Source of the DNA: a bacterium
GTDB lineage: Bacteria; Acidobacteriota; Blastocatellia; HR10
NCBI GenBank assembly: GCA_041640655.1
Contig: JBEPZV010000002.1
Span: 64,001 to 128,000, forward strand
DNA length: 64,000 nt
Reading direction: 5' to 3'
This document shows positions 46,176 through 63,900 of the stretch, piece after piece. The notes under the pieces are model-generated. The model did not search any database and was not told the origin of the DNA. It saw only the letters and a program-made list of their open reading frames with translations. The position numbers were made by a program, and so were the translations under genes. The first letter of the stretch is position 1; every line of letters begins with the position of its first letter.

Positions 46176-49100
46176 GTTTCAATCCCCCTTGGTTCGATTA
46201 GCACGTCGCCGCCGCGGTCGCCTCCCGTCCCACCCGCGAGGTTTCAATCCCACCTTGGTTCGATTAGCACCGAAAACAAAAAAAACGGCGAGCCGATCCG
46301 ATATCAGTTTCAATCCCACCTTGGTTCGATTAGCACCCAACCCGGCGCTCCCTCCACGGCAAACTCGTAGGCGTTTCAATCCCACCTTGGTTCGATTAGC
46401 ACCCCCAGCACCGCGCTTGCGTGTGTGTGCGCGGCACCGTTTCAATCCCACCTTGGTTCGATTAGCACGAGAAGGACCCCACCTCAAACCTCTCCCGAAG
46501 AACCGTTTCAATCCCACCTTGGTTCGATTAGCACTGGTGATGGGCACGTTTTGTATCCTCATCAGGTTGGTTTCAATCCCACCTTGGTTCGATTAGCACG
46601 CGGCCACCACTGCCGACTCGCACACGACGGGCACTCGTTTCAATCCCACCTTGGTTCGATTAGCACTGAGGGTGGGGACGGACGGGCGGAAATTTCAACG
46701 ATCGTTTCAATCCCACCTTGGTTCGATTAGCACCAGAAGCAACACGGAATGAAACACCGAAGTGAGCTCGGTTTCAATCCCACCTTGGTTCGATTAGCAC
46801 GAGTCCGTCGAAGCCATTGCGGCGGTGGTTTTGGAGCGTTTCAATCCCACCTTGGTTCGATTAGCACCCGGCCCATGTTCATCGAGCTTCCCCCATGTTC
46901 CCACGTTTCAATCCCACCTTGGTTCGATTAGCACCCGCTTACGGGTGGCCCAGATTGTGTATACTCACGTGAGTTTCAATCCCACCTTGGTTCGATTAGC
47001 ACCAGATGCTGAGCTTTACAAACAATACGGAGCGTGCTTGTTTCAATCCCACCTTGGTTCGATTAGCACGGAGCCGCTTCCGGAGAAGCCTCGCTGTCGG
47101 TTCTGGTTTCAATCCCACCTTGGTTCGATTAGCACGGGAAGCGAAGCCGTGCTCATCCCCCTGCACGCTCCGTTTCAATCCCACCTTGGTTCGATTAGCA
47201 CCAGAACACTGGCAGCGGGCGCTTCGGGAGCGCACGGGTTTCAATCCCACCTTGGTTCGATTAGCACCGGCAGGGCCCTTCATTCCCATAGACATCAGCT
47301 TCAGTTTCAATCCCACCTTGGTTCGATTAGCACGGCGCGGGGGAAAGATCATGCGACTGCGACATAGTGGTTTCAATCCCACCTTGGTTCGATTAGCACC
47401 GCCAGTCTCTGACGGCGACATCCCCTCCATGCCCTGTTTCAATCCCACCTTGGTTCGATTAGCACGATTGGGTCATTAAGCCAGCGGCCCTCCTGTTGTG
47501 CGTTTCAATCCCACCTTGGTTCGATTAGCACTTTTGTGACCGGTGGAATTCCCAGCGGATGGAATAAGTTTCAATCCCACCTTGGTTCGATTAGCACCTG
47601 AGCAAATACTCCACGATACCATCGTGATCAAACTGTTTCAATCCCACCTTGGTTCGATTAGCACAAGCGGAGATCACGCTGAGCGATAAGTGTCTACACG
47701 GGTTTCAATCCCACCTTGGTTCGATTAGCACAGTTGAATCACGAGCGCGAGGGCAAGGTTGATCCGCGTTTCAATCCCACCTTGGTTCGATTAGCACGGG
47801 CCGCTCCCACGGCCACAAATCTCCATACACCGCGTTTCAATCCCACCTTGGTTCGATTAGCACCGTAGAATTAAGCGAGCCGTCCCGAGACAGGCGCCGG
47901 TTTCAATCCCACCTTGGTTCGATTAGCACAAAATAAAAACTCCACGATCCTGTCGCGATCAAAATGTTTCAATCCCACCTTGGTTCGATTAGCACCGGGC
48001 TCCCGGCCCGCAACACCCTCTACGCACCCTGGTTTCAATCCCACCTTGGTTCGATTAGCACCTTTGGAGTATTTTGACCCCGCGCGATATGTAGCCGGTT
48101 TCAATCCCACCTTGGTTCGATTAGCACCCGCGCGATCTCAACAAATTCCTTTCGCGCCTCCAGGTTTCAATCCCACCTTGGTTCGATTAGCACAAGAAAA
48201 GGATTGAAGCTTCAGCAAGACCCTAGCTGGTTTCAATCCCACCTTGGTTCGATTAGCACCGGTCCGGCGCCGAAGCCGACCCGACGTGCGCAGCTGTTTC
48301 AATCCCACCTTGGTTCGATTAGCACCCCGTCTTTTTGATTTCACCGCAAGGAGGGGGAAAAGTTTCAATCCCACCTTGGTTCGATTAGCACGCCCCCCGG
48401 TTACGTAGAGCTCCCCAGCAGGTTCCTGTTTCAATCCCACCTTGGTTCGATTAGCACGGGAAGCATGGGGGACGACCGAACTTCCATCGCCATTGTTTCA
48501 ATCCCACCTTGGTTCGATTAGCACTCGATCGCCTTCTCCTGCTCCCTCAATCCGAGCCTTCGTTTCAATCCCACCTTGGTTCGATTAGCACCTTTCAGCG
48601 TTGCACCGTTTTCCTATTCAACCCTAGTTTCAATCCCACCTTGGTTCGATTAGCACCAATCCGTTAGCAATCTCTAACTCGGCAGCCGCATCGTTTCAAT
48701 CCCACCTTGGTTCGATTAGCACGGTTAATAGTGTTACGGGAATCGCCGTGAATAATAGGTTTCAATCCCACCTTGGTTCGATTAGCACAGGAAGTTTGGC
48801 CGAAATCGAACGCCGTGTGGTATCGTTTCAATCCCACCTTGGTTCGATTAGCACCCGGTTGAACCAGACATTCCCGAACCCGTTGAATCGTTTCAATCCC
48901 ACCTTGGTTCGATTAGCACTGTCCACCGCGAGCGTCTCGACCTCGCGGCTTTCAAGTTTCAATCCCACCTTGGTTCGATTAGCACGGTATTGGGATAGGG
49001 TGAGCACCGGGGGATCTTACGGTTTCAATCCCACCTTGGTTCGATTAGCACCTCTTCACAGCAAGCTCCGCCTGCACGCGCTCGTCTGTTTCAATCCCAC

Positions 49101-52100
49101 CTTGGTTCGATTAGCACCCTGCGCCTCCAGCATGTCCCCGTACTCCCTCTCCGTTTCAATCCCACCTTGGTTCGATTAGCACCGGCTCCGCGTGAGGCGG
49201 CGCGGTTTGTGCCGCTCCTCGTTTCAATCCCACCTTGGTTCGATTAGCACTCATCCCTCCACACCGAGAAGATTCCAAACGACTGCGTTTCAATCCCACC
49301 TTGGTTCGATTAGCACCGTGGTGGGAAGCTCAACGCGGAGCGGGTGGGATCAGTTTCAATCCCACCTTGGTTCGATTAGCACGCTACTCCGAAGCCGATG
49401 CGCGACGCGCCATCGCGCGTTTCAATCCCACCTTGGTTCGATTAGCACGGTCGCGCTCCCCGCGCGACTGGAGATCACTACTGGGTTTCAATCCCACCTT
49501 GGTTCGATTAGCACTTCTCCCTGCGCGTGAGCTTTTTGTGCACGCGCAGCGGTTTCAATCCCACCTTGGTTCGATTAGCACCTGGGCCCGCGCCGCGTTA
49601 AGGATCTCCTCAGCGCGTTTCAATCCCACCTTGGTTCGATTAGCACGCACGAAACCGAAAGGAGGGAAGAGATGATCGCCTGGTTTCAATCCCACCTTGG
49701 TTCGATTAGCACGCGCTCGGCGAGATCGCGAGCGTGCTCGCGATCTCGGTTTCAATCCCACCTTGGTTCGATTAGCACCAGCGCATCGTCGTCTTTGACG
49801 ATGACGCGCTGAAGTTTCAATCCCACCTTGGTTCGATTAGCACGCTACTCCGAAGCCGATGCGCGGCGCGCCATCGCGCGTTTCAATCCCACCTTGGTTC
49901 GATTAGCACTAGAATCGGATTGCCATAATCAACCTCCTCTAAATTGTTTCAATCCCACCTTGGTTCGATTAGCACCGATCCAAGACCACGCGCAACAGAG
50001 CCGCCTGGACCGGTTTCAATCCCACCTTGGTTCGATTAGCACGCGCGAAGGATCTCCTCCACGGATTGCGTAGTACGTGTTTCAATCCCACCTTGGTTCG
50101 ATTAGCACCCCGAGAGACGCCGAGCAACCGAGCCGCGTCTGAAAGTTTCAATCCCACCTTGGTTCGATTAGCACCCTTGGCGTCGGAGACGACGCCGATG
50201 AACTGGTCCCCGTTTCAATCCCACCTTGGTTCGATTAGCACAACTTGAACAGCGCGGTCTTCCGACCGCGCTACCGTGTTTCAATCCCACCTTGGTTCGA
50301 TTAGCACTCGAAGTCGCCGGGCGAGTCGGGCTGCACCAATTCAGTTTCAATCCCACCTTGGTTCGATTAGCACCCACGCGGTGGGCGTGAACCTTCCCCT
50401 GCCGGATCCGTTTCAATCCCACCTTGGTTCGATTAGCACCCTACTCCGAAGCCGATGCGCGACGCGCCATCGCGCGTTTCAATCCCACCTTGGTTCGATT
50501 AGCACGCGCTCAGCCCAAGATCCATCCCCTCGATCTCCTCGGTTTCAATCCCACCTTGGTTCGATTAGCACTCAAGCGCGCGGAGATAGAGCGCGCGCGT
50601 CGCACTTGGGTTTCAATCCCACCTTGGTTCGATTAGCACCCCCTCCGCTGCGGGATCGGGTATCATGCCGACGCTAGTTTCAATCCCACCTTGGTTCGAT
50701 TAGCACGAGCAGATCTTCTCCGAATACGAGCGACTCTCCCGCGTTTCAATCCCACCTTGGTTCGATTAGCACCTTTCTCGAATTGCCGGGGAGGGGGAAA
50801 CTTATGCGTTTCAATCCCACCTTGGTTCGATTAGCACCAATCTCGCCATAGACAACAGTTCGACTTTCCACCGGTTTCAATCCCACCTTGGTTCGATTAG
50901 CACGAGGAGGTCGCGCTCCCCGCGCGACTTGAGATTCGGCGTTTCAATCCCACCTTGGTTCGATTAGCACCACACTGCTCAACGATCTTGAAGAGTGCGT
51001 CCGCGTACGTTTCAATCCCACCTTGGTTCGATTAGCACCGAGCTCCGGATCCGGAAGGTCAACCTCCCGAGCCCGTTTCAATCCCACCTTGGTTCGATTA
51101 GCACCCGTGCGCGCGGAGATCGCGCGCGGGCGCGGCATCCGTTTCAATCCCACCTTGGTTCGATTAGCACACAAGCGCCCGGGCCTTCGCCCAAAGCGCC
51201 ATGTCCGTTTCAATCCCACCTTGGTTCGATTAGCACATGGGGATCTCGTTCACATGATCCCCACGATCTACGTTTCAATCCCACCTTGGTTCGATTAGCA
51301 CCGTGCTCGTCTTCGTTGCCAGCACGGATCCCGACAGTTTCAATCCCACCTTGGTTCGATTAGCACTGGAGCGCCGCCACCGCGACCGCTCCCATGAACG
51401 TTGTTTCAATCCCACCTTGGTTCGATTAGCACGGGATCCGATCAAGCAGCGGAACATCGTCTATCCGAGTTTCAATCCCACCTTGGTTCGATTAGCACCG
51501 CCGGGCGTGCCCGGCGCCGCTCCTGGAGTCACCGGTTTCAATCCCACCTTGGTTCGATTAGCACCAGGGGTCGGCGATCTTTCTCGCCGACCCCACAAGC
51601 GTTTCAATCCCACCTTGGTTCGATTAGCACCTCGATGCGCTCTTCGAGCGCGCGCGCGTCTTCGCTTGTTTCAATCCCACCTTGGTTCGATTAGCACTCA
51701 GCACGAAGAACAAGTGCGCCAAGCTAGCGCACGTTTCAATCCCACCTTGGTTCGATTAGCACCGCGCTTTATAGCCGTGGCCCATAGTCACCACACTAGT
51801 TTCAATCCCACCTTGGTTCGATTAGCACAAGCGCTCGAATACTTCGATCCCGCGCGCTTCATTGGTTTCAATCCCACCTTGGTTCGATTAGCACGCGCGC
51901 GAGTGTACTATGAGGGGTACGATAGACAGCGTTTCAATCCCACCTTGGTTCGATTAGCACGCGCGGCGTTCTCACTGCCTTAATGGCGTTGGCCCCGTTT
52001 CAATCCCACCTTGGTTCGATTAGCACGCGCGCCGACCCATTCGCCCGGGGCCAGCGCTAGCAGTTTCAATCCCACCTTGGTTCGATTAGCACCACGCGCC

Positions 52101-55100
52101 GAATGGGGGGGCTACCGCCGCCCCCCCTGTTTCAATCCCACCTTGGTTCGATTAGCACCAATGGCTATCCCTACGCGCATCCGCACGTCTTCAGGTTTCA
52201 ATCCCACCTTGGTTCGATTAGCACGGGGACGGATCGAGCGCCGCGTGACGCGCTCGATCCTTGTTTCAATCCCACCTTGGTTCGATTAGCACGAGGGGAA
52301 GCGGTGATCGAGGCGGATCCCCACCGCCGTTTCAATCCCACCTTGGTTCGATTAGCACACGTGAAGCGCCGGACGCGCTTTCGCCGCGACCCTGGTTTCA
52401 ATCCCACCTTGGTTCGATTAGCACCTGAGTGAACGCGACCGCGTGGCCGTGTACTTCGAGTTTCAATCCCACCTTGGTTCGATTAGCACAGGAATTTGGC
52501 TCGCTCCGCGCACGTCGTAGATGTCGTTTCAATCCCACCTTGGTTCGATTAGCACCGGCTACTCCGAAGCCGATGCGCGACGCGCCATCGCGCGTTTCAA
52601 TCCCACCTTGGTTCGATTAGCACGCTGATCCTCGTCTCCTACTGATCCTCTCGCTCCCGTTTCAATCCCACCTTGGTTCGATTAGCACGGGCGATCAATT
52701 TACACCACTGACCGTCATAAACAAGTTTCAATCCCACCTTGGTTCGATTAGCACTCCCCTCCGTGACGACCATTCTCGACCTGATCTACGTTTCAATCCC
52801 ACCTTGGTTCGATTAGCACTGCCTTCACATCCAGGTGAAGACGACAGTGACCCCCGTTTCAATCCCACCTTGGTTCGATTAGCACTTGCCACCCCCTTTC
52901 TGCCCCAATGTCGCACACTGAGTTTCAATCCCACCTTGGTTCGATTAGCACGAGACCTATGCGCGTTTGGTCACCTTGGCCGAACGCGTTTCAATCCCAC
53001 CTTGGTTCGATTAGCACACGAGGTGCTCACGACTGAAAGGCTATTGAAGATCCGTTTCAATCCCACCTTGGTTCGATTAGCACCGTGGCCCCTCGATGAT
53101 GATCACCTCAAGATCTCCCGTTTCAATCCCACCTTGGTTCGATTAGCACCCGCCAGGTGGTTCCGCGAGATCCTGAAAATCGTCGCGTTTCAATCCCACC
53201 TTGGTTCGATTAGCACCGCGGGTTGAACGATTTGCTCAAGTGGCTGTCCGGGTTTCAATCCCACCTTGGTTCGATTAGCACAATACTCACGTCGCCAACT
53301 CGAAAACTTCTAACATTGTTTCAATCCCACCTTGGTTCGATTAGCACGCGATAGCGAGAGCGCTCGCTTTCACGCGTGGCGGGTTTCAATCCCACCTTGG
53401 TTCGATTAGCACCGGCCCCTCGATGATGATCACCTCCAGATCTCCCCGTTTCAATCCCACCTTGGTTCGATTAGCACATGAGGCGTTCCTCGCCCCGATC
53501 GCGGAGTTCCGCGGTTTCAATCCCACCTTGGTTCGATTAGCACCGTCAGGATGGGAATGATTGAAATAATCAGGCGCGAGTTTCAATCCCACCTTGGTTC
53601 GATTAGCACCGCGAGTGTGTCAGTTTGACACGCTCAAACCTCATCGTTTCAATCCCACCTTGGTTCGATTAGCACGAAGCCGTGAGAGCATGCCTCCGCA
53701 AGACGCCATCAGTTTCAATCCCACCTTGGTTCGATTAGCACCCACCCGCCCTTCTTCAGCCTGGGGTATGGAACCGAGTTTCAATCCCACCTTGGTTCGA
53801 TTAGCACAAGTAGTAAGCGCTAGGGTGTTTGAGGTGGCCGAACGTTTCAATCCCACCTTGGTTCGATTAGCACCAATCCCCGTCTTCTTCGTCTTCTTCA
53901 ACGCCCCGCGTTTCAATCCCACCTTGGTTCGATTAGCACTGATGGGCGGCCGGTGATGGATACTCATACCCTCTGGTTTCAATCCCACCTTGGTTCGATT
54001 AGCACTACATGGCAGAGACGACCCCTTCGGTTCCATACCCCGTTTCAATCCCACCTTGGTTCGATTAGCACGAGGGTGAGCCCCTTTTTTTGCCCTCACG
54101 CGCATCAGTTTCAATCCCACCTTGGTTCGATTAGCACAGGGACGTCGGCTCTTGCGGCGAATGAGCCAGCCTGGTTTCAATCCCACCTTGGTTCGATTAG
54201 CACGCGTCGGGAAACCGCCATCCGCTCGATCTCCTCTCGGTTTCAATCCCACCTTGGTTCGATTAGCACTGCTATCGCGGCCAGGGAGGACATGAGCCTA
54301 TATGGTTTCAATCCCACCTTGGTTCGATTAGCACTTCACCCCGCGCAACCGAATCCGCCCGAAAATCCTCGTTTCAATCCCACCTTGGTTCGATTAGCAC
54401 CCTTTTGCAGGAGGCGCATGAGAAATGTCGGTCGTCGTTTCAATCCCACCTTGGTTCGATTAGCACCAACGCGCGCGAGAAAGCGCAAGAGATCAACTTT
54501 CGGTTTCAATCCCACCTTGGTTCGATTAGCACCAGCCCGGAGGAGATCTTACGGGCGGCTGAGGCCCGTTTCAATCCCACCTTGGTTCGATTAGCACGCG
54601 CGCTACGTCGCGGTGGCGCATAGCCACCACTCGAGTTTCAATCCCACCTTGGTTCGATTAGCACCGCTCGGCGAGAGTGCGAGATTGCGAGCGATCTCGG
54701 TTTCAATCCCACCTTGGTTCGATTAGCACCTTGCGCATAATCCCCAATGTGGATCTCGCCAAAAGGTTTCAATCCCACCTTGGTTCGATTAGCACCTCTC
54801 GGCCTCGGCCTCCGCTGTGCGAAGGATTTCTTGTTTCAATCCCACCTTGGTTCGATTAGCACTAATCCGCGCGCCGTTTTTTTTTGGGAGGGGAGAGAGT
54901 TTCAATCCCACCTTGGTTCGATTAGCACTAGTTTGTCATCTTGGCCTCCTCGCTCAATGCCCCGGTTTCAATCCCACCTTGGTTCGATTAGCACCGTTCA
55001 ATACCGTCCGTGAGCGCCCCCCTATGAACAGTTTCAATCCCACCTTGGTTCGATTAGCACGGGCATCGCCGCCCCGGGTGGAACCGCCGTCTTGTACGTT

Positions 55101-58100
55101 TCAATCCCACCTTGGTTCGATTAGCACCGTTGCGGCTCCTGTGCGCATGGACGTCAGGAGCCTGTTTCAATCCCACCTTGGTTCGATTAGCACTTGCCCG
55201 CCTTTGGCGGTCCCGTCAGAACAACTACGAGTTTCAATCCCACCTTGGTTCGATTAGCACAGCACAGCGTGCACTTCACACCGTGCCCGCTGTGTAGTTT
55301 CAATCCCACCTTGGTTCGATTAGCACCCTGACTTTCCACCGTGATTTCGAGGCGGTCACGGGTTTCAATCCCACCTTGGTTCGATTAGCACCGGATTCAC
55401 AAGCCGGCGACGCGTCCGGGTCTAGCCGTTTCAATCCCACCTTGGTTCGATTAGCACCCTCCGGCGATTTCGCCGCCGACGACCGAACATCGCGTTTCAA
55501 TCCCACCTTGGTTCGATTAGCACCGGATTCGGAGGGCAGACCTCGCGAGGCTCCTCCGTTTCAATCCCACCTTGGTTCGATTAGCACTGAGGATCCGTTC
55601 CCGCAACCGTCGAAAACTCTCGAGTTTCAATCCCACCTTGGTTCGATTAGCACGCTACTCCGAAGCCGATGCGCGACGCGCCATCACGCGTTTCAATCCC
55701 ACCTTGGTTCGATTAGCACCCCGATCGGCTTTGGCCGAATAAAACCCATAATCCCGTTTCAATCCCACCTTGGTTCGATTAGCACGCGGCTGGATGGGGT
55801 GTCCTTTCAAGTGCCCATATGGTTTCAATCCCACCTTGGTTCGATTAGCACTCGCCTACATCCTTAGCCAACGTGCGAATGTGCTCTGTTTCAATCCCAC
55901 CTTGGTTCGATTAGCACCAGTTTGCAAGGCCGCTTTTAACCAGTTACTCACTGGTTTCAATCCCACCTTGGTTCGATTAGCACGATTCCACGACTCATAG
56001 AGTCGTGGGCACCCTCTAGGTTTCAATCCCACCTTGGTTCGATTAGCACCATCCTCAGAGACATCGCCCGTGATGGAGTACCCTAGTTTCAATCCCACCT
56101 TGGTTCGATTAGCACCAATTTGTTTCACATTGTCATTTCCCGTGAAATCTTGTTTCAATCCCACCTTGGTTCGATTAGCACCGATGCTTTTCGCGTAGTC
56201 CCCTAAAACCCGTTGAAGTTTCAATCCCACCTTGGTTCGATTAGCACCCTTGTGCGAGAAATGTCACAGAAAGAAACATGAAGTTTCAATCCCACCTTGG
56301 TTCGATTAGCACAAAACCGAGAGGAGGGAGTATGAGCATGATCGCCTGGTTTCAATCCCACCTTGGTTCGATTAGCACCAGCATGGAGCGCGGAGGCGAT
56401 TCTTGAGCAGGCAGGTTTCAATCCCACCTTGGTTCGATTAGCACCTCAATCCCCCTGTACTTGATGGTAACCACTCGATCGTTTCAATCCCACCTTGGTT
56501 CGATTAGCACTTGTCGCGCGCGGACTTGGCTTCTCGCGCAATCCGCGTTTCAATCCCACCTTGGTTCGATTAGCACGAAGTATGCCGTTCAGACTGGAAC
56601 CCACCCCCAGCGGTTTCAATCCCACCTTGGTTCGATTAGCACCCCGCCGAGCGCATCGCCGAGGATCTCGTGCAGATCGTTTCAATCCCACCTTGGTTCG
56701 ATTAGCACGGGACGGATCGAGCGCCGCGTGACGCGCTCGATCATCGTTTCAATCCCACCTTGGTTCGATTAGCACATGCCGTGTAGCGAGAAGCGCGCCC
56801 GTCTGCTCCTTGTTTCAATCCCACCTTGGTTCGATTAGCACTCGCCTTCGTGGGGAACCTCATCGCCCACGTGGCCCGGTTTCAATCCCACCTTGGTTCG
56901 ATTAGCACCCGAGTGGGAATTCATATAACACTGAATTCATTACTGTTTCAATCCCACCTTGGTTCGATTAGCACTGATCGTCGTTCGTCGGTTTCCGACA
57001 TTTCCGCAAGGTTTCAATCCCACCTTGGTTCGATTAGCACATCCTCGTCTCCTACTGATCTCCTACTGAGACTCCCGTTTCAATCCCACCTTGGTTCGAT
57101 TAGCACTTTGGAGGGGAAGATGGATCAGAGGCTCTTCGTGATGTTTCAATCCCACCTTGGTTCGATTAGCACCTTGAGTAGGGGGGAGCACTGCGCGAAG
57201 ATGGCGCATGTTTCAATCCCACCTTGGTTCGATTAGCACCGCGCGCGGGCTTGGCTTTTCCCGCAATCCCGGCCAAGTTTCAATCCCACCTTGGTTCGAT
57301 TAGCACCGGGCGAAATCCTCGCGGTCAAGACGGCGGCAGGATGTTTCAATCCCACCTTGGTTCGATTAGCACCGCGCAGCGGGGAGTGATCGCCCGTTGC
57401 GGAGAGTGGTTTCAATCCCACCTTGGTTCGATTAGCACCTGTCGGCGCTATTCAACATCAATCTCAATAGCGGTTTCAATCCCACCTTGGTTCGATTAGC
57501 ACCCATTATAGCACAGAACCGCTCCAAAAAGCAAAACCGTTTCAATCCCACCTTGGTTCGATTAGCACTTCGCCCCCCAATGTGCGGAGCGTATGAAACA
57601 TATTGTTTCAATCCCACCTTGGTTCGATTAGCACATTGCGCGCGCGCTCGGCTACTCCGAAGCCGATGCGGTTTCAATCCCACCTTGGTTCGATTAGCAC
57701 TGGACGCCCTTCGTCACTTGCGGCAGATGCAGGAACGTTTCAATCCCACCTTGGTTCGATTAGCACTATGTTATTGATATTGCGTGACTTAATGACAGCA
57801 AGGTTTCAATCCCACCTTGGTTCGATTAGCACGAAGCAGCTCATCTTGTGCTGGTTCCAAGTCGTCTTGTTTCAATCCCACCTTGGTTCGATTAGCACCC
57901 GCACGTGCGGAGGACGAAATCTATCCAAGCCTCGTTTCAATCCCACCTTGGTTCGATTAGCACCGGCGACCACGCCCTCTTTGTCATCTCCCCGGGGAGT
58001 TTCAATCCCACCTTGGTTCGATTAGCACTTGTACGCCCGGCCATCCGCCGCGAGGAGGATCTCGGTTTCAATCCCACCTTGGTTCGATTAGCACGCTACT

Positions 58101-61100
58101 CCGAAGCCGATGCGCGGCGCGCCATCGCGCGTTTCAATCCCACCTTGGTTCGATTAGCACATATTGAAGAGCGCCGACAGCGCGCCCGCCAGCCCGGTTT
58201 CAATCCCACCTTGGTTCGATTAGCACCGATCGAGCACGGCGCATTGTCTACACCGTGCTCGTGTTTCAATCCCACCTTGGTTCGATTAGCACCACGAGCA
58301 GCTTTGCGGGTGAACAGGGCAGAGTTTGGTTTCAATCCCACCTTGGTTCGATTAGCACCTGATTGAGGTCATCCCTCCGCTGCCCCCCCCGAGACGTTTC
58401 AATCCCACCTTGGTTCGATTAGCACCAGCACCTCGCTGATCAGGAACCAAAAATCATCATCCGTTTCAATCCCACCTTGGTTCGATTAGCACTCCCGCCT
58501 CCTCCAGCTCCCGGAGAAAGTCCTCTAGGTTTCAATCCCACCTTGGTTCGATTAGCACGATGAGCGCTCTGACCTCCGCGAGTGAGATCACGTACGTTTC
58601 AATCCCACCTTGGTTCGATTAGCACCCGCGCCTGCAGGGGCGCGGGGAGCACGAAACCGAAGTTTCAATCCCACCTTGGTTCGATTAGCACCTTCAAGGC
58701 ACTCATTCTCCGTGAGCGCCTCGACGAGTTTCAATCCCACCTTGGTTCGATTAGCACGGAGCCGCCCGACGTGCGGAGGACGAAGTCCACCCAGTTTCAA
58801 TCCCACCTTGGTTCGATTAGCACTAGTCGCGTTAAGGGGGGACTGTTGCCTTCACATCCGTTTCAATCCCACCTTGGTTCGATTAGCACCGGCGGACGCG
58901 CTCTTACAGCGCGTGGCCACGATTGGTTTCAATCCCACCTTGGTTCGATTAGCACTACGATGAATGGGTACTTCAAGGGGCAGGGTACGCAGTTTCAATC
59001 CCACCTTGGTTCGATTAGCACGTCCCTCTCTCATCCCTCTTGACACACTCTTGACACGTTTCAATCCCACCTTGGTTCGATTAGCACTATCCCCTCTGTG
59101 ACGACCATACTCGATCTGATATATGTTTCAATCCCACCTTGGTTCGATTAGCACTTGGAATGCAACCCTCTCGAGGATGGTGGCGCCTTGGTTTCAATCC
59201 CACCTTGGTTCGATTAGCACGATCCATCATGAGGAAGTCGTTCGCCGCATCGCTTCGTTTCAATCCCACCTTGGTTCGATTAGCACCGGGCGCGGGGAAA
59301 CGGGCACGATGACCGGGACGCGGTTTCAATCCCACCTTGGTTCGATTAGCACATCCTCCCCCACCAATGTCCTTCCCTTGAATCAAATGTTTCAATCCCA
59401 CCTTGGTTCGATTAGCACGAGGAGACCGTATGCTCGTGCTGACGGAAAACGGACGTTTCAATCCCACCTTGGTTCGATTAGCACGCTTCCGAGTCTACCG
59501 AGAGAATACACCGAACTCGTGTTTCAATCCCACCTTGGTTCGATTAGCACCAAACGGCGCGCGGGCCGAAAAGCCCACGCGCCGAATGTTTCAATCCCAC
59601 CTTGGTTCGATTAGCACCTGCCGCCGGTGTGCTGCTGCTCATCCTCGTTCTCGTTTCAATCCCACCTTGGTTCGATTAGCACGGGACTGAGGAGGCGAAG
59701 GCGTTCATCGCCTTCGCCGGTTTCAATCCCACCTTGGTTCGATTAGCACCTCGAACTTCTCAACAGACTGCTCGAAACCGTTCGCGTTTCAATCCCACCT
59801 TGGTTCGATTAGCACTATATCTGCACTGGGATGGTGAATGCTCACATTCAGTTTCAATCCCACCTTGGTTCGATTAGCACTCATCCGTGAGCGGCTGCGG
59901 CTGCGTGTGCGGCTGAGTTTCAATCCCACCTTGGTTCGATTAGCACCAAATCTCCGGACTTCAGTTGTGAGGTTTTGGCCAAGTTTCAATCCCACCTTGG
60001 TTCGATTAGCACCAATCCCCAAGACGCGATCCTCGCAGTCCAACCCTAGTTTCAATCCCACCTTGGTTCGATTAGCACCTTTGACGTCCTCGGCCTCCGC
60101 GAGGGGACGCTCACGCGTTTCAATCCCACCTTGGTTCGATTAGCACCCAGGATCCCATCCTCGATCGCCAGATTTCACCGGGTTTCAATCCCACCTTGGT
60201 TCGATTAGCACAAGAAGTCGCGCTTCCCGCGCGACTTGAAATTGTCCGTTTCAATCCCACCTTGGTTCGATTAGCACCAGAAGATCAACTTTCGAGGGGA
60301 ACGCCCGCCCGAGTTTCAATCCCACCTTGGTTCGATTAGCACAGGATGAGCGTATGCCGAGAAGCCGCTACCCACATCGTTTCAATCCCACCTTGGTTCG
60401 ATTAGCACCGTCTTCGGCGGCGGGCGTGTGTGTTTTGGGGACGTCGTTTCAATCCCACCTTGGTTCGATCAGCACCAACTCCCCCGCCAGTGAAGCCGAG
60501 AGACCACACCAAGTTTCAATCCCACCTTGGTTCGATTAGCACCTCAAGCGTCATAGCCATGATCATCCTCCTTCTTCAGTTTCAATCCCACCTTGGTTCG
60601 ATTAGCACGTGTACACCCACATCCGTCGAACCTACGACCGCATGCGTTTCAATCCCACCTTGGTTCGATTAGCACGTGTACACCCACATCCGTCGAACCT
60701 ACGACCGCATGCGTTTCAATCCCACCTTGGTTCGATTAGCACAATCGCCGGAAGCGCTCACGTTTTGCCGCACGAAAAGTTTCAATCCCACCTTGGTTCG
60801 ATTAGCACCGGGTACCCGTACGCGCACCCGCACGTCTTCAGCGAGTTTCAATCCCACCTTGGTTCGATTAGCACGAATTGAAACAATCCTTGAATACGCG
60901 CTTGATCGCGGTTTCAATCCCACCTTGGTTCGATTAGCACAGATATCCGCATCCTGCGTCTTGAGCAGCGCGTGCCAGTTTCAATCCCACCTTGGTTCGA
61001 TTAGCACACTTGAGCGGTGGGAGAAGCTGTCCGAGTATTCGATTGTTTCAATCCCACCTTGGTTCGATTAGCACATTCTCTCGAGTTTTTCGATCCCGCG

Positions 61101-63717
61101 CGCTACGTCGCGTTTCAATCCCACCTTGGTTCGATTAGCACGCCGCCAGCGCAGGAGTGGATCGAGCTGGCCTCAGAGTTTCAATCCCACCTTGGTTCGA
61201 TTAGCACTCTGAAGAACTCCGTGTTGGAGACGTTTCCCTCGAGTTTCAATCCCACCTTGGTTCGATTAGCACCACCTCTTCACCGATGCCGAATATGAGC
61301 TGCTCCGTGTTTCAATCCCACCTTGGTTCGATTAGCACCGATCTCCCTCCCACCATCGCGCACGCGATGATCGGTTTCAATCCCACCTTGGTTCGATTAG
61401 CACAAGCGCTCGAGCACTTCGATCCCACGCGCTACGTCGGTTTCAATCCCACCTTGGTTCGATTAGCACCGCGCGATCTCGACAAACTCGCGTCGCGCGT
61501 CGAGGTTTCAATCCCACCTTGGTTCGATTAGCACCCGCTGCGGAGAGTGCGGCGATGTCGAGCGCGTTCGGTTTCAATCCCACCTTGGTTCGATTAGCAC
61601 CGTCGGGAAACCGCCATCCGCTCGATCTCCTCTCTGTTTCAATCCCACCTTGGTTCGATTAGCACCTCCGCCTGAGCCGCCGCCTGCTCCAAAATTTCCT
61701 CGTTTCAATCCCACCTTGGTTCGATTAGCACCATCACTGCGCGCGCGGAGAGCGCGCGCGAGGACGAGGTTTCAATCCCACCTTGGTTCGATTAGCACTC
61801 GTGATTGACGCCGACCATCACCGGGGGGATTTTGTTTCAATCCCACCTTGGTTCGATTAGCACCTACGACCTTCCCCCCACCATCGCGCACGCGATGCTG
61901 GCGTTTCAATCCCACCTTGGTTCGATTAGCACGATGAGGAGAAGCGGGTGTGGAAGCCGTTTCTCGAGGTTTCAATCCCACCTTGGTTCGATTAGCACCA
62001 GCGAAAGCGTACGCTTTCGCTATCTGTTCTTCGATGGTTTCAATCCCACCTTGGTTCGATTAGCACAGGTCTGTCCCCTGCTTCCAAGGAAGCTGCAGAA
62101 TTGTTTCAATCCCACCTTGGTTCGATTAGCACGATTGTCGAACTTTCGCGCGCCCACGCGAATTCAACGTTTCAATCCCACCTTGGTTCGATTAGCACGC
62201 TGGGCCGCCGCGGCCTTCTCGGCAGGCCGATCACGTTTCAATCCCACCTTGGTTCGATTAGCACCCTGGTCGGGGCGTCGAATGAGCTTCCGTCCATCAG
62301 TTTCAATCCCACCTTGGTTCGATTAGCACCCCGCAGAGCGCATCGCCGAGGATCTTGTGCAGATCGTTTCAATCCCACCTTGGTTCGATTAGCACCGTCA
62401 TCGTCTTTGACGATGACGCGCTTGAGGGGACGTTTCAATCCCACCTTGGTTCGATTAGCACACATCCTCGACTCCGGGGCAGGTTCCCTTGCCGCTCGTT
62501 TCAATCCCACCTTGGTTCGATTAGCACCCCGGCCCGCCAGCGCCGCAGAGGCCCGCACGACCTGTTTCAATCCCACCTTGGTTCGATTAGCACTGCGTGC
62601 GCTTGCGGATGCGGAACTCCGCGTCACGCGTTTCAATCCCACCTTGGTTCGATTAGCACTTTCCGACATTTCCGCAAGTGGTCGAAGCCATGCGTGTTTC
62701 AATCCCACCTTGGTTCGATTAGCACCGCTCGGCGAGGCGCTCGGCGAGCCGCGCGCCGTGGTTTCAATCCCACCTTGGTTCGATTAGCACGATGCAGACG
62801 AAGAGGTTGAAGAAGCTGTTGAACCGGTTTCAATCCCACCTTGGTTCGATTAGCACGAGGGGGAATCGTCCCCCTCGCTCCAGGAGGGAATCGTTTCAAT
62901 CCCACCTTGGTTCGATTAGCACCTCTCGGACCTCGACAATAAAATTGCCGACTCGCGTGTTTCAATCCCACCTTGGTTCGATTAGCACAAGCCGTCGAGG
63001 CGATCACGGCTGTCGTCCTCGAACGTTTCAATCCCACCTTGGTTCGATTAGCACTGAGAAGCTGCCACCGTCCCTGCCGTCACCCCAAGAGTTTCAATCC
63101 CACCTTGGTTCGATTAGCACTTGATGAGCGCGAGCCAATCGTCCAGCCTGCTCCGCGTTTCAATCCCACCTTGGTTCGATTAGCACCCCCATGTGTACTC
63201 CCTAGCTAGCAGAACGTTTTCCGTTTCAATCCCACCTTGGTTCGATTAGCACCGTCGGCGCCTGGCACGCCGATGCGGCCGACTACAGGTTTCAATCCCA
63301 CCTTGGTTCGATTAGCACCGTTGAGCGTGCGCCCGGAGCGACCGCGACGGAATCGTTTCAATCCCACCTTGGTTCGATTAGCACGAGATGATCGTGGTAG
63401 CTCCATTGTCGGTGATTCAGGTTTCAATCCCACCTTGGTTCGATTAGCACTGACTACTTCGGGTCTTTCCTGCTCCTTGAAATAACGTTTCAATCCCACC
63501 TTGGTTCGATTAGCACCAGCGGCGGGAACCGGTTTCCCCCATCGGCCGAACTTGTTTCAATCCCACCTTGGTTCGATTAGCACCGGCGATGTCGAGCGCG
63601 TTCACGGCATCGCCGCGAACGGTTTCAATCCCACCTTGGTTCGATTAGCACAGAACGGCCTCGACAAGGGCGAGGAGGGCTTCTAAAGTTTCAATCCCAC
63701 CTTGGTTCGATTAGCAC
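46176..63717 (-). CRISPR. CRISPR array, about 265 repeats of GTGCTAATCGAACCAAGGTGGGATTGAAAC (30 bp) with 35-39 nt spacers; type I-B-like
   Basis: + strand GTTTCAATCCCACCTTGGTTCGATTAGCAC at about 66 nt period (count estimated from the period). ATTGAAAC 3' end, degenerate 29-nt repeat at 46176 and promoter at the right end all indicate minus orientation. Confidence 0.99.
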
Positions 63718-63900
63718 CCACGAAATTTGGCCGAAAAAGGCCAAATTTCGGCGTTTATTATGCCGTCGTCCCCCGGTTTCTGTCAAGGGGGCGGGGAACG
63801 ACGGCACTGCGTTCGAGAAGGGACCCCGGCCAACCGCCTCGGCGTTCCGTGAAACCTTGATAGAGCGAGAGATCGTCGATGCTGCCTCGAAACTCCGTCC
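63718..63900 (-). promoter_or_regulatory. CRISPR leader with sigma70 promoter and inverted repeats
   Basis: TTGACA (63786-63781)-18 nt-CATAAT (63762-63757) pointing into the array; inverted repeats at 63721-63750 and about 63761-63806. Confidence 0.8.

Follow-up and report, generated by a model that had tools for sequence, protein, structure and literature searches.

Spacers of an acidobacterial CRISPR array point to integrating elements that bear a putative ubiquitin-like conjugation module

The stretch of DNA analysed here, which we call the window, comprises 64,000 nucleotides (nt) from a bacterium of the acidobacterial lineage Blastocatellia, HR10 (GenBank assembly GCA_041640655.1, contig JBEPZV010000002.1, positions 64,001 to 128,000 of the forward strand), and contains a long array of clustered regularly interspaced short palindromic repeats (CRISPR). 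We find that a sizeable share of the spacers of this array derives, with a probability that we put at roughly 0.7, from variant members of a single family of integrating elements that bears a putative ubiquitin-like conjugation module and is related to a metagenomic contig, L022. At least 28 of the 264 spacers analysed fall on the genes of this module, which encode an E1-like protein (13 spacers), a JAB protein (8), an accessory protein that we call X (2) and an E2-like protein (5). That an invader-borne module of this kind had been recorded in the CRISPR memory of the host was put forward in an initial annotation of the window on the strength of spacer translations; those observations are confirmed here and the inference drawn from them is supported.

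The array and the element that it targets

The array is a single one of 266 repeats and about 265 spacers on the minus strand (Table 1), with 265 copies of the 30-nt repeat GTTTCAATCCCACCTTGGTTCGATTAGCAC spanning 46241-63717 and one extra, degenerate copy of 29 nt at 46176. The reverse complement of the repeat terminates in ATTGAAAC, which we take to be the usual 3' end of such repeats, and it is because of this end, of the degenerate copy at the low-coordinate side and of the cas genes beyond 63717 that we read the array on the minus strand with its newest spacers at the high coordinates. The cas genes, identified by a Pfam scan on the minus strand directly past 63717, comprise cas1, cas3, csm6 (HEPN), CARF, RAMPs, cas10, cas5 and cas7, and make up a composite locus of types I and III, which the array serves. 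Spacer counts refer to the 264 spacers between full repeats, the one beside the degenerate repeat being left out; their length is 34-39 nt (36 nt in 178 of them) and their mean G+C content (GC) is 61%. About 35 groups of spacers target overlapping or variant forms of common sites, from which it follows that the host encountered these elements in many versions.

Mapping of the spacers to viral or plasmid DNA, as had been proposed initially, succeeded in part. A relative of the target was found in L022, while megablast with the entire array as query matched nothing among GenBank phages or in the plasmids of PLSDB, IMG/VR returned 0 matches both to exact 21-mers from two hot protospacers and to three degenerate codon patterns, and a whole-array search of the genomes of relatives returned only their own arrays, with the repeats dominating. 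No spacer has a full-length self-match in the 3.1-Mb host genome. L022 was reached through a degenerate pattern for VFDDDAL, which retrieved three metagenome loci, the other two (L023 and L024) carrying the same array as the window; L022 as read here comprises bases 1-19,492 of contig Ga0197142_1000616, which is 32,934 bases long, and has a GC of 58%. At 75% ungapped identity or more, 13 of the 264 spacers match L022 against a mean of 0.08 in controls, which were 12 host segments equal in length to L022, and at 70% or more the count is 22 against a mean of 1.2 (maximum 4); at 66% or more, 41 spacers stand against a control mean of 15, and this threshold is too loose. At the protein level 19 spacers match L022 genes in frame, compared with 1 among reversed spacers, and spacers in arrays of the same genus (L003, L004 and L006) match the same L022 genes. 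L022 is a diverged relative of the targeted element.

The placed spacers also carry information on how they were selected. For 16 of the 19 confidently placed spacers, the plus strand of the window corresponds to the sense strand of the gene targeted, and the CRISPR RNA (crRNA), transcribed from the minus strand, is therefore mostly antisense to the messenger RNA, a bias that fits selection by an RNA-sensing type III effector sharing the array. The commonest dinucleotide at positions -3 and -2 is CC (18 of the 68 spacers placed on L022), which by eye also stands beside most overlapping spacer pairs, and 5'-CCN in crRNA orientation is the probable protospacer-adjacent motif.

The tally of spacers per module gene merges in-frame matches to L022, matches to the wider E1 and E2 families, overlaps between spacers and two alignments checked by hand, and four of the JAB assignments depend on a by-eye translation of overlapping spacers; the spacers at 48062, 51829, 61075, 61404 and 54598 overlap, reading LE.FDPARYVAVAHSHH by eye, and the readings of sp127 (54598) and sp84 were borne out by search (Table 1). 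Among the sites covered are the DxD strand of the E1-like protein, the metal site of the JAB protein, and both the HPH motif and the cysteine of the E2-like protein. The module spacers extend from sp28, close to the trailer, up to sp263, which a single spacer separates from the leader, and the conflict is therefore both old and ongoing. The pile-up may in part be an effect of recognition, in that only conserved genes are still recognisable in a diverged relative.

Both translations singled out in the initial annotation, QRIVVFDDDAL (frame 1 of the plus strand, 49779-49813) and VIVFDDDALEG (frame 2, 62396-62431), were recovered, and the two spacers overlap on one shared protospacer; a third variant, IIVFDDDALDG, is spacer 17 in the array L003 of another species in the genus. 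Most differences among the three fall on third codon positions (GAC/GAT, CTG/CTT/CTC) or amount to V/I and E/D exchanges, and these synonymous and conservative changes speak for this frame as the coding one. The synonymous changes, with the in-frame mapping onto the E1-like gene, also rule out a non-coding hairpin as the nature of the DDD spacer, which is nearly palindromic and reads QRVIVKDDDAL in reverse. The JAB-like and E2-like tiles noticed initially find their places in L022 as well, the former on the HxHx7Sx2D motif of the JAB protein and the latter on HPHV-x6-C of the E2-like protein two genes further on, so that in L022 the two protospacers lie in one operon and not on unrelated elements or ordinary chromosomal genes. 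A spacer that seemed to bridge the junction of the E1 and JAB genes, sp116, was rejected as a low-complexity chance match.

The proteins of the module and their operon

The E1-like protein (P0001) has 186 amino acids (aa) and is of the ThiF type. Its AlphaFold2 (AF2) model, built from a five-sequence alignment, has a predicted local distance difference test (pLDDT) of 86 and a predicted template-modelling (pTM) score of 0.85, and a Foldseek search with this model gave ThiF (1zfn) first, with an expectation value (E) of 3.4e-9 and a template-modelling (TM) score of 0.66. All top matches listed were E1-like; further matches were Uba4, UBA5, Cap2, BubCD, Atg7 and MccB, and PaaA was also listed. 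A profile of the protein searched against the PDB likewise gave ThiF first (E 0.0015, aligned over 110 positions). Invariant in 12 sequences of the E1 family are GxGGxG (GSGGVG) and residues D29, D31, R40, K54 and D88, and D29-D31, which the two DDD spacers cover in frame, corresponds to the beta2/DxD ATP-binding strand. The alternative that the DDD spacers come from a TOPRIM primase, which the initial annotation had considered an equal fit, is ruled out by the ThiF fold and the profile matches. A precomputed PF00899 match exists for the close relative P0008, and the Pfam ThiF scores of the viral homologues described below are 75-80 bits (L030, L032 and L033) and 29.5 bits (L027) at a cut-off of 28.1. 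We consider the E1 assignment firm. The close E1 family amounts to 5 clusters among 5.8 billion protein clusters, and neither this protein nor the E1 of L030 gave a tblastn match in GenBank phages; the family has therefore escaped annotation. Screens of 185,579 species genomes and of 401 genomes from the host's phylum turned up no member. A complex prediction for E1 with E2 scored 0.00 without controls and carries no weight in either direction.

The JAB protein (P0002, 241 aa) has the JAMM motif HxHx7Sx2D in the form HSHHDMGAFHSPTD, and the motif is found as HSHxxxGxxFSxTD in all seven viral JABs examined, whose scores against Pfam Prok-JAB are 27.5 (L025), 31.3 (L028) and 29.9 bits (L029), and 19.5-22.3 bits in L027, L030, L032 and L033. 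This assignment, too, is firm. Protein X (P0003, 188 aa) had no relatives in a word-indexed search and gave nothing usable from the ESM Atlas, and its only kin, by a weak BLASTP match (E 7e-4), is the viral-locus gene that lies upstream of E2.

The E2-like protein (P0009, 143 aa) contains the sequence HPHVFSDGRLC (HPHV-x3-G-x2-C). An exhaustive HMMER search gave eight other proteins, of which six were aligned with it to give seven sequences; P0015 (2386 aa) and P0016 (561 aa) were excluded because only short stretches matched. Seven residues are invariant in this family (H93, P94, H95, V96, G100, C103 and G105). In a profile search against the PDB, E2 enzymes came first (3we5 at E 0.0082, UBE2W at 0.039), with HPHVFSDGRLC aligned against HPHVYSNGHIC of 3we5/UBE2W (HPHVxSxGxIC), and in a VIA search, which is independent of Foldseek, the top 21 matches were all E2/UEV chains. 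One of the seven family members matches Prok-E2_D at E 0.23, and the word-indexed search returned no relatives of the E2-like protein. We regard the E2 assignment as probable.

In L022 these genes belong to one early, leftward operon with the order 66-aa protein, hairpin, E1, JAB, X, E2, helix-hairpin-helix protein, winged-helix replication initiator and integrase, preceded by a predicted promoter that is strong and sigma-70-like. Genes were assigned with Pfam, PHROGs and NCBIfam across 78 open reading frames (ORFs). The suggestion that E1, E2, JAB and a ubiquitin-like protein (Ubl) would share an operon with phage hallmark genes holds for E1, JAB and E2, which in this relative are accompanied by an integrase, helix-turn-helix (HTH) proteins and an initiator; the Ubl is a candidate only, and no capsid or terminase was found in the 19.5 kb read, where the only virion-type match is a gpV 'Apex' motif. 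L022 is an integrating mobile element and most likely a temperate virus. The ORFs of L022 include no gene for a CD-NTase or an effector, and near the module, in L022 and in the viral loci, no gene for a rhodanese, a sulfurtransferase, or thiazole or molybdopterin functions was found; the four module proteins have no PADLOC match, and no PRTRC model of NCBIfam matched (both at E up to 0.1), these models covering ThiF-related and ParB-related proteins. A 317-aa ORF of L022 likewise had no tblastn match in GenBank phages.

Relatives in viral contigs and a candidate modifier

Scanning IMG/VR with the alignment of the E1 family returned nine loci, seven of them distinct (L025/L026 and L031/L032 are near-duplicates), with GC ranging from 27% to 51%. 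In all nine the JAB gene lies immediately downstream of E1, save for an insertion between the two in L033. In L025, L027, L028 and L029 the gene upstream of E1 encodes an E2-like domain (HPHV/HAHV...G.IC) with a cysteine-rich tail, and a relative of X stands upstream of this gene in turn. The neighbours in the viral loci encode an exonuclease, a primase-helicase, an RNA ligase, a T4-type clamp loader, Ro60/TROVE and a poly(A)-polymerase-like enzyme. A full-text literature search, with subscription journals and supplements outside its scope, found no description of a phage-encoded E1-E2-JAB module.

The candidate for the modifier itself in L022 is a protein of 66 aa ending in ...DAKGGA, whose gene lies directly upstream of E1, is preceded by an AAGGAGG ribosome-binding site, is also called by public gene callers, and is followed by a GC-rich, terminator-like hairpin with a run of T, a predicted attenuator at L022 9614-9595. 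We regard it, from its sequence and position, as a candidate ubiquitin-like modifier. In the viral loci of intermediate GC, X is preceded by a small ORF with the ending ...AGC, ...AGV or ...AGF (L025, L028 and L029), and L027 has none before X. The low-GC loci L030, L032 and L033 have an ORF of 91-97 aa ending in ...AG or ...AA, followed by a protein of 285-320 aa with HYH..C for which no relation to E2 was found. In the ESM Atlas the low-GC small ORF comes nearest to a viral cluster with 70 members and to clusters bearing the name ThiS (feature score 0.91; TM 0.63/0.73), and its Pfam and PDB sequence searches were empty; the likeness to ThiS is a lead only. Comparison by hhalign revealed no similarity among the three groups of small ORFs.

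Several side observations concern the viral loci. In L025, L027 and L028 both the E2-like and the JAB proteins have long C-terminal tails with many CxxC pairs and the look of zinc ribbons, which may act as substrate-binding or E3-like parts. The insertion in L033 is a GIY-YIG homing endonuclease. Right after the module, L030 and L033 encode Ro60/TROVE-vWA proteins, whereas the corresponding neighbour in L032 is a fusion of a RimK-type ATP-grasp with a zinc-protease-like domain (Table 1).

Known systems, proposed role and competing explanations

The closest bacterial arrangement is the '6d' operon type of Iyer, Burroughs and Aravind (2006; PMC1779556), described as a Ubl, an alpha-helical protein, an E2-like protein, a JAB and an E1. 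The present module shares with it the same five parts, including a small protein that carries a C-terminal glycine, a stand-alone E2-like protein and an extra uncharacterised protein, as well as a sporadic, mobile distribution; unlike 6d as described there, its E1 has only 186 aa, its E2 keeps the classical histidine (HPH) before the cysteine that the 6d E2 lacks, this E2 is without a Pfam Prok-E2 match, and the genes lie on a virus-like element and viral contigs instead of bacterial chromosomes. The same source describes phage-borne Ubl and JAB proteins in the tail assembly of lambda and T1, TAPI (Ubl) and TAPK (JAB plus NlpC/P60); as described there, these are without E1 or E2 and belong to the tail module, whereas the genes considered here are in an early/replication region and their JAB has no NlpC/P60 domain. 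Bil (BilABCD; PMC10557695) also has separate genes for Ubl, E2, JAB deubiquitinase and E1 in one operon, but BilD consists of tandem inactive and active adenylation domains with a mobile cysteine domain, in contrast to the single-domain E1 without a conserved cysteine found here, and the present module is invader-encoded and has no PADLOC match.

Type II systems of CBASS (anti-phage signalling that is based on cyclic oligonucleotides) pair Cap2, a fusion of E2 and E1, with Cap3, a JAB. Their E1 domain shares its fold with that of the module (7tqd, 7tsx and 7to3 appear among the Foldseek matches), and an E2-like cysteine domain and a JAB antagonist occur in both, but the module has E1 and E2 as separate genes and is accompanied by no CD-NTase, effector or PADLOC match. 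The pairs ThiF/ThiS and MoeB/MoaD offer the closest solved structure and sequence and a homodimer-type single adenylation domain, and the low-GC phage loci have the ThiS-like small protein mentioned above as a lead; in contrast to ThiF and MoeB, the E1 of the module is about 60 residues shorter, is always paired with JAB, has an E2-like partner in L022 and L025-L029, and has no sulfur-transfer genes near it. From 6d, CBASS Cap2/Cap3, Bil and also Bub, the closest kinds described, the module is set apart by four features: a single cysteine-less E1 of 186 aa, an HPH-Cys E2 outside the Pfam E2 families, an accessory protein of its own and a location on the invader.

In the explanation that we favour, a sizeable share of the spacers would have been taken, over the whole lifetime of the array, from variants of one virus-like integrating family. 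The JAB protein would trim the residue after the C-terminal glycine of the small protein, whose fold is presumed to be ubiquitin-like, and may also reverse conjugates; the E1 would adenylate that glycine. Because the E1 has no conserved cysteine, we propose that Cys103 of the E2 attacks the adenylate directly, forming a thioester, from which the modifier would be passed to a lysine of a viral or host target early in the cycle of the element, with X or the zinc-ribbon tails perhaps giving target specificity. The pile-up of spacers on the module would probably arise because the element diverges fast and is best conserved in these genes, and the mostly antisense crRNAs would suit a type III effector. 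We suggest more tentatively that elements from the acidobacterial one to low-GC phages with T4-type replication genes may each carry a complete minimal cascade of their own, composed of a Ubl with a one-residue tail, a cysteine-less E1 of 186-200 aa, an E2 in some cases fused to zinc ribbons, a JAB and the accessory protein X, expressed first upon induction or infection and tagging a host or viral protein, for example to disarm immunity or to control replication; if true, it would rank as the smallest known E1-E2 system and as the first to be borne by an invader.

A number of results weigh against this explanation. The best matches between spacers and L022 are only 31/36 and 30/36, matches to its genes lie at 66-86% nucleotide identity, gene order and linkage in the very element targeted are what we infer from L022 as a relative, and the hottest protospacer of the array, hit by seven spacers, could not be placed on L022. 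In the 19,492 of 32,934 bases read, Pfam and PHROGs gave no match to a capsid, portal or terminase family. Across the 12 E1-family sequences there is not one cysteine that is invariant or nearly so, and therefore the thioester chemistry would have to start at E2 or the system might not conjugate; moreover, the E1-like protein itself has no Pfam ThiF match at E up to 0.01, and the JAB protein scores 24.5 bits against Prok-JAB (PF14464), 0.5 under the cut-off of 25. The AF2 model of the E2-like protein has a pLDDT of 67 (core 80-89), its best Foldseek match has an E of 0.089 with none significant (though nearly all of those listed are E2/UEV), the VIA matches have Z scores under 5 (4.7-3.8, over 81-99 aligned residues), and the protein has no match to the Pfam E2 families (UQ_con, Prok-E2_A-E). 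Finally, no relative of the 66-aa protein could be detected, and its hhalign comparison with the other small ORFs was empty.

Prophages often carry defence genes, and L022 integrates, so that the module might be read as Bil-, Bub- or CBASS-like anti-phage cargo that protects the lysogen rather than as a tool of infection. The characterised bacterial E1-E2-JAB systems are defence systems (PMC10557695, PMC10097602). We nevertheless think this reading unlikely, given the empty PADLOC searches and the lack of a CD-NTase or effector nearby, the retention of the module in every variant recorded by the spacers, and the setting of its relatives amid replication and nucleotide-metabolism genes, on contigs whose genes include those for a T4-type clamp loader and for a homing endonuclease. 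The module comes first in an early operon that includes the replication initiator, which argues for a part in the element's own programme and not for defence of a lysogen.

Slightly less probable still is that the genes are cargo for a ThiS/ThiF-type sulfur carrier, or for MccB- or PaaA-like adenylation of a peptide, accompanied by a JAB, and that the 'E2-like' protein is unrelated to E2. The nearest structure being ThiF, with MccB and PaaA also among the matches listed, speaks for it, as do the lack of a conserved cysteine in the E1, the weak fold support for the E2 and the ThiS-like small ORF of the low-GC loci; yet the HPHV-x3-G-x2-C spacing is that of UBE2W-type E2s and its residues are invariant in the family, the E2 domain stays beside E1 and JAB in L025, L027, L028 and L029, and no genes for rhodanese, sulfurtransferase, thiazole or molybdopterin functions turned up in the neighbourhood. 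Chance readings of 12-residue translations from spacers of unrelated sources have hardly any probability left, for although peptides of 11-12 aa carry little information and host controls at 66% identity or more gave 15 spurious matches on average, the in-frame excess (19 against 1) and that at 75% identity or more (13 against 0.08) both refute this idea, synonymous differences distinguish several spacers that tile the same genes, and array spacers of other species match these genes too.

The conjugation module that we favour is conserved enough to have been sampled at least 28 times by one host array and recurs in viral contigs of very different base composition. CBASS Cap2/Cap3, Bil and Bub have been studied as host defences, and the same chemistry, in a stripped-down form, is predicted here on the invader. 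If the proteins do conjugate, they would offer a minimal model of transfer from E1 to E2 without an E1 cysteine, and would be a candidate viral counter-measure or regulatory device.

Table 1. Spacers assigned to the module, and other features of the array, of L022 and of the viral loci (positions are those of the window unless a contig is named)
Feature	Position	Strand	Remarks
CRISPR array	46176..63717	-	trailer end 46176 (degenerate repeat), leader end 63717
Presumed leader	63718..63856	-	by position only, between last repeat and next ORF
sp29	48128..48163	-	E1, EARKEFVEIAR; E 5.5e-6 to P0001 residues 95-105
sp49	49449..49484	-	E1, LPARLEI; E 5e-5
sp54	49779..49813	-	E1 DxD strand, QRIVVFDDDAL; E 8.7e-9 to P0006; in frame
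sp71	50904..50940	-	E1, EEVALPARLEIR; E 2.4e-7
sp125	54467..54502	-	E1, KVDLLRFLAR, opposite orientation; E 3.2e-6
sp156	56511..56546	-	E1, VARGLGFSRNP; 11/11 residues, E 4e-9
sp167	57240..57276	-	E1, ARGLGFSRNP
sp212	60212..60247	-	E1, EVALPARLEI; E 2.6e-5
sp213	60278..60312	-	E1, GRAFPSKVDLL, opposite orientation; E 1.5e-4
sp229	61339..61373	-	E1, LPPTIAHAMI
sp231	61470..61504	-	E1, RREFVEIA, opposite orientation; E 1.3e-5
sp237	61864..61902	-	E1, YDLPPTIAHAML
sp245	62396..62431	-	E1 DxD strand, VIVFDDDALEG; E 1.2e-8; in frame
sp28	48062..48097	-	JAB tile, LEYFDPARYVA; by eye, like sp225/sp230; compare P0002 FDPSAFIGIAHSHH
sp72	50971..51008	-	JAB, YADALFKIVEQC versus FPDALFEDIVEC
sp84	51763..51798	-	JAB metal site, FIAVAHSHH; E 1.3e-5
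sp85	51829..51864	-	JAB tile, ALEYFDPARFI; cluster with sp127, by-eye translation
sp127	54598..54634	-	JAB metal site, ARYVAVAHSHHS; E 0.002
sp182	58227..58262	-	JAB, GVDNAPCSI, opposite orientation
sp225	61075..61111	-	JAB tile, SLEFFDPARYV; overlap cluster, by-eye translation
sp230	61404..61439	-	JAB tile, ALEHFDPTRYV; overlap cluster, by-eye translation
sp232	61535..61570	-	X (P0003), assigned through overlap with sp263
sp263	63584..63621	-	X, GDVERVHGIAAN versus HDAERVFGVAAS; E 0.002
sp61	50242..50277	-	E2, NLNSAVFRPR
sp90	52159..52194	-	E2 active site, NGYPYAHPHVF
sp170	57439..57472	-	E2, LSALFNINLNS; E 1.3e-5
sp215	60409..60445	-	E2 over catalytic Cys, VFGGGRVCFGD; E 1.6e-5
sp221	60809..60844	-	E2 active site, GYPYAHPHVFS
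Spacers on hottest protospacer	49383-49418, 49844-49879, 50440-50475, 52556-52593, 55654-55689, 57635-57670, 58095-58130		overlap
GNAT acetyltransferase fused to tRNA-guanine-transglycosylase-like domain	L022 201-1715	-	beside integrase; may be host flank or cargo
Tyrosine integrase	L022 1905-2498	-	
STIV B116-like protein	L022 3028-3381	-	
Winged-helix protein	L022 4575-5699	-	weak replication-initiator matches
RNA-polymerase alpha-CTD-like helix-hairpin-helix protein	L022 6854-7213	-	
66-aa protein	L022 9631-9831	-	candidate modifier
Promoter of module operon	L022 9940-9913	-	TTGACA, 16 nt, TAGAAT
Two excisionase-type HTH_17 proteins	L022 10061-10405 and 10805-11068	-	
Ribbon-helix-helix protein	L022 10435-10815	+	
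Rightward block	L022 11188 onwards	+	unknown genes; one transglutaminase-core similarity, one gpV 'Apex' motifs
GIY-YIG homing endonuclease	L033 10493-11164	-	between E1-like and JAB
Ro60/TROVE-vWA protein	L030 11872-13482		right after module
Ro60/TROVE-vWA protein	L033 12700-14292		right after module
RimK-type ATP-grasp fused to zinc-protease-like domain	L032 10520-11959		same place as Ro60/TROVE-vWA

No tRNA gene was detected in L022 by ARAGORN. Seven spacers converge on a nearly invariant site, IARALGYSEADARRAIA, the hottest protospacer in the array; its source was not found, the pattern GYSEADARRAI giving 0 matches in genome contigs. The two other public metagenome assemblies with the array (L023 and L024) share many identical spacers with the window in a partly different order: in L024, for instance, a DDD spacer follows sp225, and sp226 and sp228 follow sp239. 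These differences may reflect either true variants of the array or artefacts of assembly. The only point variant among the repeats is a single-base change at 60446-60475. Two adjacent spacers at 60609-60645 and 60676-60712 are identical, a tandem duplication of a repeat-spacer unit, and by eye many spacers contain GC-rich inverted repeats, for example those at 49713-49748, 52225-52262 and 49449-49484.

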